Part shown: in pieces, positions 1-4,270 of the stretch
Position numbering within the stretch: position 1 is the first letter of the stretch
How the letters are laid out: every line of letters starts with the position of its first letter
Source: a virus
Lineage: Duplodnaviria > Heunggongvirae > Uroviricota > Caudoviricetes
IMG/VR virus record: IMGVR_UViG_2602041568_000004
Reading direction: 5' to 3' (one strand)
DNA: 4,270 bases
Made by a program: the position numbers and the translations under genes
Notes under the pieces: generated by a model
The model's database searches: none
What the model was told of the DNA's origin: nothing
What the model saw: the letters and a program-made list of their open reading frames with translations, nothing else

Positions 1-62
1 AGATCCATTAGCCGATTTCTGCATAGCTCCGGAGGCTTTATTTATCGTTTCTCCCAAACCAA
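1..62 (-). CDS. Possible 5' part of an inverted alternative tail-fibre C-terminal segment (partial; would continue past the window start)
   Basis: Only one minus-strand frame is open from the crossover site to position 1 (reads CIFLNVGLGETINKASGAMQKSANGS going leftward from 78); the other two hit stops at 66-68 and 38-40. In Mu G, P1 C and e14 P segments the invertase-proximal site abuts an inverted variable tail-fibre part. A 26-codon open frame is weak evidence alone (roughly 0.3 by chance). Confidence 0.25.
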
Positions 63-74
63 CGTTTAAGAAAA
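49..74. other. DNA-invertase crossover site (hix/gix/cix/pix-like 26-bp imperfect palindrome)
   Basis: TTCTCCCAAACCAACGTTTAAGAAAA: two 12-bp imperfectly inverted half-sites (8/12 symmetric) around a central AA (61-62). About 20/26 matches to hixL (TTCTTGAAAACCAAGGTTTTTGATAA) as I recall it. Lies 55 bp upstream of the invertase ATG, the usual place for the proximal site of Gin/Cin/Pin systems. Confidence 0.7.
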
Positions 75-129
75 TGCAAAGATTACGGCTAACTGGCATC
101 ATCTCCGGTTTTTATTCAGGGGATCCATC

Positions 130-723
130 ATGCTTATTGGCTATGTCCGCGTGTCAACAAATGACCAGAATACGGAATTGCAGCGTAACGCGCTGGAGTG
201 CGCAGGATGTGAGCTGATTTTTGAGGATAAAATCAGCGGCACGAAGTCCGACCGACCGGGGCTGAAAAAACTGCTCAGAACATTATCGGAAGGTGACACT
301 CTGGTAGTCTGGAAGCTGGACCGGCTGGGGCGTAGTATGCGGCATCTGGTCATTCTGGTTGAGGAGCTGCGCGAACGCGGCGTTAATTTTCGCAGCCTGA
401 CGGATGCTATTGATACCAGCACGCCGATGGGGCGTTTTTTCTTTCATGTGATGGGTGCCCTGGCTGAAATGGAGCGAGAACTCATTGTCGAGCGGACACG
501 CGCCGGACTGGAAGCGGCCAGAGCCAAAGGTCGTATTGGTGGCAGACGACCGAAACTCACCGCGAGTGAGTGGGAGCAGGCCGGGCGTTTGCTGGCTGCA
601 GGGGAGTCACGTCAACGCGTGGCACTGATTTTTGATATTGGTCTGTCCACGCTCTATAAAAAATTTCCCTCATCAGCGACAAAGAATAAATTGTGTCATC
701 CCTTAGCCAACCGGGACAAATAG
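130..723 (+). CDS. Site-specific DNA invertase, serine recombinase of the Hin/Gin/Cin/Pin family (Pin-like)
   Basis: 197-aa ORF. N-terminus MLIGYVRVSTNDQ carries the catalytic Ser at codon 9 (154-156). Conserved resolvase/invertase motifs LVVWKLDRLGRS and GRFFFHVMGALAEMERELIVERT. C-terminal helix-turn-helix VALIFDIGLSTLYKKFP resembles the Hin DNA-binding domain. Weak Shine-Dalgarno (AGGGG) upstream of the ATG. Confidence 0.95.
   Translation: MLIGYVRVSTNDQNTELQRNALECAGCELIFEDKISGTKSDRPGLKKLLRTLSEGDTLVVWKLDRLGRSMRHLVILVEELRERGVNFRSLTDAIDTSTPMGRFFFHVMGALAEMERELIVERTRAGLEAARAKGRIGGRRPKLTASEWEQAGRLLAAGESRQRVALIFDIGLSTLYKKFPSSATKNKLCHPLANRDK
213..237. promoter_or_regulatory. Candidate recombinational enhancer element (Fis-binding region) inside the invertase 5' coding region
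   Basis: Perfect 9-bp inverted repeat GCTGATTTT (213-221) / AAAATCAGC (229-237) with a 7-bp spacer, over codons about 28-36. In hin, gin and cin the Fis-dependent enhancer lies within the first 100-170 bp of the invertase gene. I could not verify Fis-site spacing by eye. Confidence 0.3.
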
Positions 724-782
724 CCTGACATCTCCGGCACAACTGAAAATATCACTCACCCATTAACCACGGAGTTAAACGG

Positions 783-1973
783 ATGAGTGACTATCATCAC
801 GGCGTGCAGGTGCTGGAGATTAACGACGGCACCCGCGTCATTTCCACCGTATCCACTGCCATTGTCGGCATGGTCTGCACGGCCAGCGATGCGGATGCGG
901 AAACCTTCCCCCTCAATAAACCGGTGCTGATTACCAATGTGCAGAGCGCAATTGCAAAGGCCGGTAAAAAAGGCACGCTGGCGGCGTCGTTACAGGCCAT
1001 CGCCGACCAGTCAAAACCGGTCACCGTTGTCGTGCGCGTGGAAGACGGAACCGGCGACGACGAAGAAACGAAGCTCGCGCAGACCGTTTCCAATATCATC
1101 GGCACCACCGACGAAAATGGTCAGTACACCGGACTGAAAGCTCTGCTGGCGGCAGAGTCGGTAACCGGTGTTAAACCGCGTATTCTTGGTGTGCCGGGAC
1201 TGGACACCAAAGAGGTGGCTGTTGCACTGGCATCAGTCTGTCAGAAGCTGCGCGCTTTCGGGTATATCAGCGCATGGGGCTGTAAAACCATTTCCGAGGT
1301 GAAAGCCTACCGCCAGAATTTCAGCCAGCGTGAGCTGATGGTCATCTGGCCGGATTTCCTCGCATGGGATACGGTCACCAGTACCACCGCCACCGCGTAT
1401 GCCACCGCCCGTGCGCTGGGTCTGCGCGCTAAAATCGACCAGGAGCAGGGCTGGCATAAAACGCTGTCCAATGTCGGGGTGAACGGTGTTACCGGCATCA
1501 GCGCATCCGTCTTCTGGGATTTGCAGGAGTCCGGCACCGATGCTGACCTGCTTAACGAGTCAGGCGTCACTACGCTGATTCGCCGCGACGGTTTCCGCTT
1601 CTGGGGTAACCGTACCTGCTCCGATGACCCGCTGTTCCTCTTTGAAAACTACACCCGCACCGCGCAGGTGCTGGCCGACACGATGGCTGAGGCGCACATG
1701 TGGGCGGTGGACAAGCCCATCACTGCAACGCTGATTCGCGACATCGTTGACGGCATCAATGCCAAATTCCGTGAGCTGAAAACAAACGGCTATATCGTGG
1801 ATGCGACCTGCTGGTTCAGCGAAGAATCCAACGATGCGGAAACCCTCAAGGCCGGAAAACTGTATATCGACTATGACTATACCCCGGTGCCTCCTCTTGA
1901 AAACCTGACCCTGCGCCAGCGTATTACCGATAAATACCTGGCAAATCTGGTCACCTCGGTTAACAGCAATTAA
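783..1973 (+). CDS. FI: Contractile tail sheath protein (P2 gpFI family)
   Basis: 396-aa ORF starting MSDYHHGVQVLEINDGTRVISTVST, which I recognise as essentially the P2 tail sheath protein along its length. GGAG at 771-774 sits 8 nt before the ATG. Gene order sheath-tube-E-T is the P2 FETUD arrangement. Confidence 0.95.
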   Translation: MSDYHHGVQVLEINDGTRVISTVSTAIVGMVCTASDADAETFPLNKPVLITNVQSAIAKAGKKGTLAASLQAIADQSKPVTVVVRVEDGTGDDEETKLAQTVSNIIGTTDENGQYTGLKALLAAESVTGVKPRILGVPGLDTKEVAVALASVCQKLRAFGYISAWGCKTISEVKAYRQNFSQRELMVIWPDFLAWDTVTSTTATAYATARALGLRAKIDQEQGWHKTLSNVGVNGVTGISASVFWDLQESGTDADLLNESGVTTLIRRDGFRFWGNRTCSDDPLFLFENYTRTAQVLADTMAEAHMWAVDKPITATLIRDIVDGINAKFRELKTNGYIVDATCWFSEESNDAETLKAGKLYIDYDYTPVPPLENLTLRQRITDKYLANLVTSVNSN

Positions 1974-1985
1974 GGAGCCTGACCG

Positions 1986-2504
1986 ATGGCAATGCCGCGC
2001 AAACTCAAGTTAATGAACGTCTTTCTGAACGGCTACAGCTATCAGGGCGTTGCAAAGTCCGTCACGCTGCCAAAACTGACCCGTAAGCTCGAAAACTATC
2101 GCGGTGCGGGGATGAACGGCAGCGCACCGGTAGACCTCGGCCTTGATGACGATGCGCTGTCAATGGAGTGGTCGCTCGGTGGTTTCCCGGATTCGGTTAT
2201 CTGGGAGCTTTACGCCGCAACCGGTGTGGATGCCGTGCCGATTCGTTTTGCAGGCTCTTACCAGCGCGACGATACCGGCGAAACGGTGGCCGTCGAAGTG
2301 GTCATGCGTGGACGTCAGAAAGAAATCGACACTGGCGAGGGTAAACAGGGAGAAGACACTGAGTCGAAAATCTCCGTGGTCTGCACCTATTTCCGGCTGA
2401 CGATGGACGGTAAGGAGCTGGTCGAAATTGACACCATCAACATGATTGAGAAGGTGAACGGCGTCGACCGGCTGGAGCAACACCGCCGCAATATCGGCCT
2501 GTGA
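1986..2504 (+). CDS. FII: Tail tube protein (P2 gpFII family)
   Basis: 172-aa ORF (MAMPRKLKLMNVFLNGYSYQG...) directly after the sheath gene, with AAGGAG at 1972-1977 overlapping the FI stop. Length and sequence match my recall of P2 gpFII. Confidence 0.95.
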   Translation: MAMPRKLKLMNVFLNGYSYQGVAKSVTLPKLTRKLENYRGAGMNGSAPVDLGLDDDALSMEWSLGGFPDSVIWELYAATGVDAVPIRFAGSYQRDDTGETVAVEVVMRGRQKEIDTGEGKQGEDTESKISVVCTYFRLTMDGKELVEIDTINMIEKVNGVDRLEQHRRNIGL

Positions 2505-2560: not shown

Positions 2561-2836
2561 ATGAACAAAGAAAATGTCATTACCCTGGACAATCCGGTCA
2601 AACGTGGTGAGCAGGTTATCGAACAGGTCACGCTGATGAAACCCAATGCCGGGACGCTGCGTGGTGTCAGTCTGGCAGCGGTCGCGAACTCCGAAGTCGA
2701 TGCACTGATTAAGGTGCTGCCGCGCATGACGGCACCGATGCTGACCGAGCAGGAAGTCGCCGCGCTGGAACTGCCTGACCTTGTGGCGCTGGCCGGTAAG
2801 GTGGTCGGTTTTTTGTCGCCGAACTCGGTGCAGTGA
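2561..2836 (+). CDS. E: Tail assembly chaperone gpE (zero-frame product)
   Basis: 91-aa ORF (MNKENVITLDNPVKRGEQVIEQ...) between tube and tape-measure genes, matching P2 gpE in position and length. Contains the slippery heptamer near its 3' end. Confidence 0.9.
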   Translation: MNKENVITLDNPVKRGEQVIEQVTLMKPNAGTLRGVSLAAVANSEVDALIKVLPRMTAPMLTEQEVAALELPDLVALAGKVVGFLSPNSVQ

Positions 2837-2988
2837 CGTTTCCAAAAAATCTCTCGGTCGATGACCTGATGGCGGATGTGGCAGTGATATTTCACTGGCC
2901 GCCATCAGAACTGTATCCCATGAGCCTGACCGAACTCATCACATGGCGCGAAAAGGCGCTCCGGCGAAGCGGAAACACGAATGAGTAA
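2561..2988 (+). CDS. E+E': gpE+E' fusion made by programmed -1 ribosomal frameshift (shift at 2809-2815)
   Basis: After a -1 slip at TTTTTTG the -1 frame is open from 2815 to the TAA at 2986-2988, reading ...FVAELGAVTFPKNLSVDDLMADVAVIFHWPPSELYPMSLTELITWREKALRRSGNTNE. Predicted fusion is 85 + 57 = 142 aa (counted from the sequence), matching the known P2 E+E' product and the lambda G/GT paradigm. Confidence 0.8.
2809..2815 (+). promoter_or_regulatory. Slippery heptamer T TTT TTG for the -1 frameshift in E
   Basis: TTTTTTG in phase with E codons TTT (2810-2812) and TTG (2813-2815); the zero-frame stop is 19 nt downstream (2834-2836). Same heptamer as the P2 E/E' shift site. Confidence 0.75.
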
Positions 2989-4270
2989 CAATGTAAAATT
3001 ACAGGTATTGCTCAGGGCTGTTGACCAGGCATCCCGACCGTTTAAATCCATCCGCACAGCGAGCAAATCGCTGTCGGCGGATATCCGGGAAACACAAAAA
3101 TCACTGCGCGAGCTGAACGGTCAGGCATCCCGTATTGAGGGATTTCGCAAGACCAGTGCACAGCTCGCCGTGACTGGTCATGCACTTGAAAAGGCACGGC
3201 AGGAGGCCGAAGCCCTTGCCACACAGTTTAAAAACACCGAACGTCCGACACGTGCTCAGGCGAAAGTGCTGGAATCCGCAAAGCGTGCGGCGGAGGACTT
3301 ACAGGCGAAATATAACCGCCTGACGGATTCCGTTAAACGCCAGCAGCGGGAACTGGCCGTTGTGGGAATTAATACCCGCAATCTTGCACATGATGAGCAG
3401 GGACTGAAAAACCGTATCAGTGAAACCACCGCACAGCTTAACCGTCAGCGTGACGCGCTGGCGCGTGTCAGTGCGCAACAGGCAAAACTTAACGCAGTAA
3501 AACAGCGTTATCAGGCAGGCAAGGAACTGGCCGGAAATATGGCCTCAGTGGGCGCTGCCGGTGTGGGGATTGCGGCGGCGGGAACGATGGCCGGAGTTAA
3601 GTTGCTGATGCCCGGTTATGAGTTTGCGCAGAAAAACTCAGAATTGCAGGCTGTGCTCGGTGTGGCAAAAGACTCCGCCGAAATGGCCGCATTACGCAAA
3701 CAGGCGCGCCAGCTCGGCGATAATACCGCAGCCTCGGCAGATGATGCAGCCGGTGCGCAGATTATTATTGCGAAAGCCGGTGGGGATGTTGATGCCATTC
3801 AGGCGGCAACGCCGGTCACGCTGAATATGGCGCTGGCGAACCGTCGCACGATGGAAGAAAACGCCGCCCTGCTGATGGGGATGAAATCCGCCTTTCAGCT
3901 TTCAAACGATAAGGTCGCTCATATCGGGGATGTTCTCTCCATGACGATGAACAAAACCGCCGCCGATTTTGACGGCATGAGCGATGCGCTGACCTATGCC
4001 GCACCTGTGGCAAAAAATGCCGGTGTCAGCATTGAAGAAACCGCCGCAATGGTCGGGGCGCTGCATGATGCAAAAATTACAGGCTCAATGGCGGGGACGG
4101 GAAGCCGTGCCGTGTTAAGCCGCCTGCAGGCACCGACGGGAAAAGCATGGGATGCACTCAAAGAGCTTGGAGTGAAAACCTCAGACAGCAAGGGAAACAC
4201 CCGGCCAATATTTACCATTCTGAAAGAAATGAACCGCCCCGGGTTTCCTGGAGAGTGTTTTATCTGTGAA
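2981..4270 (+). CDS. T: Tail tape measure protein gpT, 5' part (open to the window edge; only 2981-4229 appears T-derived)
   Basis: Frame open for 430 codons from the ATG at 2981 with no stop in the window (hence absent from the ORF track). Start MSNNVKLQVLLRAVDQASRPFKSIRTASKSL matches my recall of the P2 gpT N-terminus. The ATG overlaps the E' stop (ATGAGTAA), indicating translational coupling. From about codon 417 the frame reads into an IS-like sequence. Confidence 0.9.
   Translation, partial: MSNNVKLQVLLRAVDQASRPFKSIRTASKSLSADIRETQKSLRELNGQASRIEGFRKTSAQLAVTGHALEKARQEAEALATQFKNTERPTRAQAKVLESAKRAAEDLQAKYNRLTDSVKRQQRELAVVGINTRNLAHDEQGLKNRISETTAQLNRQRDALARVSAQQAKLNAVKQRYQAGKELAGNMASVGAAGVGIAAAGTMAGVKLLMPGYEFAQKNSELQAVLGVAKDSAEMAALRKQARQLGDNTAASADDAAGAQIIIAKAGGDVDAIQAATPVTLNMALANRRTMEENAALLMGMKSAFQLSNDKVAHIGDVLSMTMNKTAADFDGMSDALTYAAPVAKNAGVSIEETAAMVGALHDAKITGSMAGTGSRAVLSRLQAPTGKAWDALKELGVKTSDSKGNTRPIFTILKEMNRPGFPGECFICE
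4230..4270 (+). mobile_element. Terminal inverted repeat of an IS3-family insertion sequence (IS629/IS3411-like end), partial, inserted in gene T
   Basis: TGAACCGCCCCGGGTTTCCTGGAGAGTGTTTTATCTGTGAA begins with the 5'-TG...TGAACCGCCCCGGG motif I recognise from IS3-family (IS629/IS1203/IS3411 group) ends. The peptide it encodes in the T frame (NRPGFPGECFICE) is unlike a tape-measure protein. Only 41 bp are visible, so this is provisional. Confidence 0.5.

Follow-up and report, generated by a model that had tools for sequence, protein, structure and literature searches.

This locus raises the question of whether the DNA just upstream of the invertase gene is the end of an invertible tail-fibre segment, as an earlier note on the same DNA had proposed, and, if it is, whether the prophage can still change its receptor specificity by flipping that segment. 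The window, by which we mean the whole stretch of 4270 bases that was analysed, comes from a P2-like (Peduovirus) prophage of E. coli, of whose late region it forms the right-hand part, and its features are collected in Table 1. We are highly confident that this prophage carries an invertible tail-fibre segment equivalent to e14 P, Mu G and P1 C, and that positions 49-74 form the segment's invertase-proximal crossover site. The site, an intact invertase and an open frame are found directly in the window, and the partner site, the contents of the segment, both of its orientations and the position of the crossover are observed in related loci. The window contains a single site with 48 bases of the segment; its source genome probably keeps the partner site.

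Table 1. Features of the 4270-base window, with the evidence on which each assignment rests
Feature	Position	Strand	Evidence or remark
Silent tail-fibre C-terminal cassette, first 16 codons (TINKASGAMQKSANGS)	1-48	-	Open frame and homology
26-bp crossover site, Pin/Gin/Cin/Hin type	49-74	.	Match to e14 site
Inner half-site TTCTCCCAAACC	49-60		Encodes GLGE on the minus strand
Core dinucleotide AA	61-62		
Outer half-site CGTTTAAGAAAA	63-74		
Spacer, site to invertase start	75-129	+	Conserved across 12 loci
Serine DNA invertase, 197 aa, intact	130-723	+	Pfam Resolvase and HTH_7
Tail sheath, P2 FI-type	783-1973	+	Pfam Phage_sheath_1, Phage_sheath_1C, Gp18_domIII_N
Tail tube, P2 FII-type	1986-2504	+	Pfam Phage_tube 2e-60
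Tail assembly chaperone genes, E and E' extension frame	2561-2988	+	Pfam Phage_TAC_7
Gene E	2561-2836	+	
E' extension frame	2833-2988	+	
Tape-measure gene T, 5' half, truncated	2981-4231	+	Pfam PhageMin_Tail
IS3-family terminal inverted repeat (IS1203/IS629), inside T	4230-4270	.	Multicopy match; boundary +/-3 nt

In Peduovirus, the late tail genes run in the order FI (sheath), FII (tube), E, E' and T, with H and G upstream and U, D and ogr downstream, and the window shows this P2-like gene order, with sheath, tube, TAC_7 chaperone and tape measure following one another. The relatives carry the full P2 gene set, including Ogr_Delta, at 94-98% nucleotide identity, and their ORFs homologous to E/E' belong to Phage_TAC_7 and Phage_P2_GpE. 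Four prophages with an identical sheath protein (L017, L018, L022 and L024) are without an invertase and have a long H gene and other cargo instead; these loci (around 5910-5921) align to the window only from 691-703 on, which indicates that the invertase module occupies the variable slot between G and FI. The C-terminal tail of the window's invertase is 13 aa longer than that of PinE and is encoded partly by P2 backbone DNA, and the last ~10 codons of the gene (691-723), the extension beyond PinE, appear to derive from that backbone.

The site itself reads TTCTCCCAAACC AA CGTTTAAGAAAA, a 2-bp core between two 12-bp halves whose symmetry is imperfect, and it is separated by 55 bp from the invertase ATG at 130. 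The invertase-proximal site of e14 in the MG1655 record, TTCTCCCAAACCAACGTTTATGAAAA, is equal to it at 25 of the 26 bases, with a single mismatch, and Mu gixR in the Mu record is equal to it at 17/26 positions. When the window was shuffled 200 times, no match to the site arose at up to 3 mismatches, and the related loci that were checked depart from it at 0-3 positions. A 26-bp site just upstream of the invertase, as the earlier note had claimed, is therefore confirmed by the near identity to e14 and by the empty shuffles.

For the DNA on either side of the site, we compared 26 related loci (L001-L012, L015, L017-L026, plus e14 and Mu), all oriented with the invertase on the plus strand. The best match of window 1-780 in a complete E. 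coli genome is 98.1% identical, and L001, the closest full-length relative, stands at the same 98.1% over this stretch. The site and the sequence to the right of it are conserved across the related loci, and the 48 bases to the left are unrelated in most of them (17-40 mismatches in 48). BLAST alignments to the window start at 49, or at 46 or 40 through chance extension, and homology breaks off sharply at the left edge of the site, position 49. Among the related loci compared, the window's cassette is shared from position 1 only by L001, L002 and L020.

Just as had been claimed from the letters, a single minus-strand frame is open from the site to the window edge; it spans 111 to 1 and reads KPEMMPVSRNLCIFLNVGLGETINKASGAMQKSANGS, with ...FLNVGLGE across the site followed by TINKASGAMQKSANGS, and the other two of the three minus-strand frames contain stops. 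As stand-alone evidence we rejected this open frame, because 37 stop-free codons are expected by chance with a probability of about (61/64)^37 = 0.17 per frame, and its meaning is therefore taken from homology to an annotated ORF in the relatives. In the closest of these the same frame is annotated as a gp53-like tail-fibre C-terminal ORF: bases 1-48 of the window show no mismatch to L002 and 1 mismatch to L001, the 16 codons are identical to those of the L002 cassette, and the cassette ORF of both loci, annotated as a gp53-like domain protein, matches Pfam Gp53-like_C. On the strength of this homology, positions 1-48 are read as the invertase-proximal end of the invertible segment, with a C-terminus of the gp53-like type. 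The cassette that starts TINKASGAMQKSANGS is in the silent orientation and promoter-less; it abuts the invertase, lies on the minus strand, points away from the invertase and has no H constant part before it. In L015 and in about 90 genomes, this cassette sequence forms an in-frame fusion with H.

The other end of the segment can be followed in the relatives. Their partner site is TTCTCGCATACC TT GGTTTGGGAGAA, inverted and with a complementary core (TT as against AA), and it lies inside the tail-fibre gene H. Ten of the first 12 loci have it, as do 6 others, at a distance upstream of 1.2-1.9 kb in most relatives, 3.2 kb in one class (L005, L021 and L025) and 4.5 kb where an IS66 has been inserted. 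Between the two sites, the plus strand carries a fibre C-terminus (Gp53-like_C or Collar) and a Caudo_TAP (tfa-like) chaperone gene, and in most loci a second pair of C-terminus and chaperone lies on the minus strand, so that the pairs are divergent; in Pfam terms, Phage_tail_fib is linked with Gp53-like_C or Collar and accompanied by Caudo_TAP. Both the second, inverted site 1-4 kb upstream and the divergent tail-fibre C-terminal and tfa-like genes between the sites, which the earlier note had predicted, were thus found in the relatives, the genes usually as two pairs. The H constant part reads ...SGKDVAG-LLAYLGLGE across the left site and is in frame with either cassette. The reason is that GLGE is encoded by the inner half-sites, which form perfect inverted repeats, and either cassette can therefore be joined to H without a change of frame.

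Inversion was evident when individual loci were compared with one another. The segments of L010 and L012 are 98.8% identical over 1869 bp and reversed, those of L006 and L008 are 97.6% identical and likewise reversed, and in such reversed pairs the cassette that one locus expresses is silent in the other. Inversion is seen for the cassette type of the window as well, L015 being a flipped L002 with the same tfa protein accession on opposite strands. We also built the predicted flipped junction from the H constant part, the left site and the reverse-complemented window-type cassette, and 90 complete E. coli genomes aligned to this junction without a break, at 98-99.8% identity. The junction in the window's orientation, with the cassette silent and abutting the invertase, was found in 89 complete E. 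coli genomes. The census of orientations (89 as against 90) is thus close to 1:1, and such near-equal counts argue that most copies are active. Researchers have already detected inversion in the P2-like prophages of EPEC E2348/69 by whole-genome sequencing of clonal cultures, reporting it as phase variation, and have confirmed inversion at the e14 locus of K-12 by PCR (PMC4272514). The claim that fibre C-termini and their chaperones are exchanged by inversion is upheld by the reversed segments of the relatives and by an H that is in frame with either cassette, and both orientations occur across the relatives' genomes, the window's cassette type included. The Mu G / P1 C / e14 P arrangement proposed for the window is in turn supported by the site, the invertase identity and the partner, contents and orientations in the relatives.

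Whether the switch still serves this prophage is a separate matter, because tape-measure gene T is interrupted. Homology of T to every relative ends at 4227-4231, and full-length T is 815 aa in the relatives. Used as a query, the 42-nt end of the window matched 3889 of 5426 complete E. coli genomes, at 17,694 places in all and up to 49 in one genome, and its identity was at least 99% in 5176 of 5338 records. The copy in O157:H7 lies next to an 'IS3-like element IS1203 family transposase'. None of the listed complete E. coli genomes spans the junction of T and the IS. Exact-pattern scans gave no match either, whether with a signature specific to the left end of the window (genome and metagenome contigs) or with the T/IS junction (genome contigs). 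The cut of T by IS1203/IS629 at about 4231 indicates that the prophage is probably defective and that it probably no longer makes tails, so that the switch may now be without a phenotype. The earlier statement that the prophage can switch receptor specificity thus holds for the mechanism, which is seen in relatives, and in the window the ability may be ancestral, since T is cut by the IS. The window may also be a short contig bounded by repeats.

These insertions bear on the first rival reading, in which the segment is a frozen relic that no longer inverts in the source genome, the partner or H having been lost to an IS or a deletion, or the segment having become locked. In L001, an IS2 lies in H and no partner site was detectable at up to 3 or up to 7 mismatches, nor as an inverted repeat; L009 has an IS26-type insertion and no partner, and the H gene of L002 is broken. 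The window's prophage already bears an IS in T, which points to a host rich in IS elements and makes a frozen segment plausible. However, the window's invertase ORF is intact and its site is perfect, 16 related loci keep the partner, and the two orientations are roughly equal in number; we therefore consider a frozen segment unlikely. As an observation in its own right, the H/invertible region of the relatives has repeatedly been struck by IS2, IS66, an IS26-type element or deletions (disrupted at L001 6345-7573, L004 6687-9272, L009 9076-9780 and L002 3715-4076). Since these events break H or remove the partner, many copies appear to be decaying.

A second rival reading is a multi-site, shufflon-like switch with at least three crossover sites and more than two alternative C-termini, of which 49-74 would be one end. 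A published EPEC P2-like prophage indeed has three inverted repeats and four variants with three alternative C-termini (PMC4272514), and the class formed by L005, L021 and L025 has segments of 3.2 kb. Nevertheless, a search that allowed up to 7 mismatches gave exactly two sites in the loci with the window's cassette type (L002, L015 and L020), and a shufflon-like switch is accordingly very improbable for the window.

The position of the crossover is given by L020 and L023, whose 1169-bp segments are 100% identical, lie in opposite orientation and have identical flanks. One inner half-site is a variant (GGATTTGGAGAA, or TTCTCCAAATCC as its reverse complement); L020 has it in the left site and L023 in the right site, and the outer halves are unchanged. 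Because the inner halves change sides and the outer halves stay, strand exchange must have taken place at the centre of the 26-bp site, which is what this family of enzymes would lead one to expect. That the break at position 49 is instead a module boundary left by homologous recombination at the GLGE coding motif might be suggested by the notorious mosaicism of tail-fibre genes and by an inner 12-bp half that is coding sequence in all cassettes, but it is effectively excluded by the identical segments inverted between identical flanks with exchanged inner half-sites (L020/L023) and by the equal orientation census, and is opposed as well by the dedicated invertase next to the site and by a site all but identical to that of e14, where inversion has been shown experimentally (PMC4272514).

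L020 and L023 (both at 4483-5703) also lack the same ~400 bp of the invertase gene; the deletion is in frame, lies between CTGATTTTTGA direct repeats, corresponds to window 225-624 and leaves a 60-aa product. Their segments are nonetheless inverted relative to each other, which suggests that a Pin-family invertase encoded elsewhere in the genome acted on them in trans; alternatively, the deletion may have arisen more than once at these repeats. We tentatively speculate that the Pin-family invertases of co-resident prophages keep flipping defective P2-like segments, including those that have lost their own invertase, although we regard this as less probable than its opposite, and the idea draws more on the related loci than on the window. 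If it were true, the switches in E. coli genomes would form a network with cross-talk, in which the IS-disrupted but invertase-intact prophage of the window would be one node, and this network could be kept for a function at the level of the host, such as tailocin-like particles or the exchange of cassettes with superinfecting phages.

Site-specific inversion by the adjoining enzyme, which is the reading that we prefer, is also consistent with the invertase gene itself. The product has the architecture of its family, with an N-terminal catalytic domain that contains the nucleophilic serine (Ser9, in the motif YVRVSTNDQ) and a C-terminal HTH domain; the Pfam matches are Resolvase at 2e-52 (residues 3-135) and HTH_7 at 1e-12 (138-181). 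Over 181 aa it is 86.7% identical to e14 PinE and 79.6% identical to Mu Gin, and the top matches among solved structures are 3uj3 and 4m6f, both with chains named 'DNA-invertase' (E=1.6e-94). The exact protein occurs in 4932 blocks of a public assembly collection, and the window's enzyme is probably active. A plus-strand ORF at 74-217 (47 aa), which runs out of frame over the invertase start, was set aside as a mechanical ORF.

The leader in front of the gene is well conserved, with only 2-9 mismatches in its 55 nt across 12 loci, and it has a GGGGA Shine-Dalgarno sequence about 8 nt before the ATG. The spacer presumably holds the invertase promoter; a simple scan of 1-800 returned no sigma-70 consensus promoter, and the terminator-like matches in the same scan were weak, lay within coding or leader sequence and were not interpreted. 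The same leader contains a weak hairpin with a T-run behind it (AACTGGCATCATCTCCGGTT TTTATTCAGG, window 91-118); it is kept in all related loci that were checked and is recognisable in e14.

In this family of enzymes, the Fis-dependent recombinational enhancer lies in the 5' part of the invertase gene and contains two Fis sites about 48 bp apart. The first 360 nt of the window's invertase gene are 86-90% identical to pinE, and a G-N13-C motif that resembles a Fis site and is AT-rich in its centre (GAGGATAAAATCAGC) lies at window 223-237, that is, at gene positions 94-108, a position common to the window, pinE and gin. This motif is a candidate for one half of the enhancer. Candidate second Fis sites were found 37-50 bp away by a simple motif scan of the window, pinE and gin, and their register is not conserved. 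As in the characterised members of the family, inversion would be expected to depend on Fis and the enhancer.

We propose that the invertase pairs the site at 49-74 with an inverted partner, which would be expected about 1.9 kb upstream inside H, in a Phage_tail_fib gene, and close in sequence to TTCTCGCATACCTTGGTTTGGGAGAA. Both sites would be cut at the central dinucleotide, and the strands would be exchanged by rotation of the subunits, upon which the intervening DNA would be inverted. This would join the constant N-terminal region of H, about 280 aa long and with ...LLAYLGLGE at its end, in frame to one of two C-terminal receptor-binding cassettes, each of which would have its own gene for a tail-fibre assembly chaperone behind it.

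Inversion in P2-like prophages of E. coli has already been published, and the finding in the window is correct but ordinary: it is a textbook phase-variable host-range switch, the confirmation of which matters mainly for annotation. Short ORFs with a 'gp53-like domain', as called by annotation pipelines beside the invertase, are really promoter-less alternative C-termini of H. The orientation given in an assembly is an arbitrary snapshot, and contig breaks and apparent mis-assemblies are to be expected at this locus.

Several well-known systems can be set beside the window. Salmonella Hin and its hix sites, which flank the H segment, belong to the same enzyme family and share the design of the 26-bp site with its 2-bp core, but the DNA that Hin inverts carries a promoter for flagellin genes in place of tail-fibre coding cassettes. 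For this reason, the label 'hix-like', which the earlier note had attached to the site, is accurate only at the family level; in detail the site, which we compared with those of e14 and Mu, is essentially that of e14. The G segment of Mu has the same architecture as the window's module (Sc-gixL-Sv-U-U'-S'v-gixR-gin), and its first codons past the site resemble those of the window (GLQE-TVNRA in Mu, GLGE-TINKA in the window). Mu differs in gixR, in its transposable-phage backbone and in the greater length of its G segment (about 3 kb).

The P segment of e14, a cryptic prophage of K-12 (stfP/ycfK-tfaP-tfaE-stfE-pinE), has an invertase that is 86.7% identical and a proximal site with only one base of difference. 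Its distal site, CTCTCGAAAACCTTGGTTTGGGAGAA in the MG1655 record, has the inner half GGTTTGGGAGAA in common with the partner site of the relatives, and its layout is the same: fibre constant part, site, C-terminus with tfa, tfa' with C-terminus', site and invertase. However, e14 is a lambdoid remnant, whereas the module of the window sits in a P2-like prophage between G and FI, and the cassettes differ. The nearest counterparts are the P2-like loci, namely the EPEC E2348/69 prophages, phages pro483 and S164 and 'P2' of O157:H43 T22, which share the backbone, the place of the module and the invertase, and are 93-96% identical to window 49-780 at the nucleotide level; in the phage records of the pro483/S164 type, the module is found at about 95% identity, annotated as 'DNA invertase' and 'tail fiber protein'. 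Only the silent cassette (gp53-like, TINKASGAMQ...) and the IS1203/IS629 in T set the window apart from these loci.
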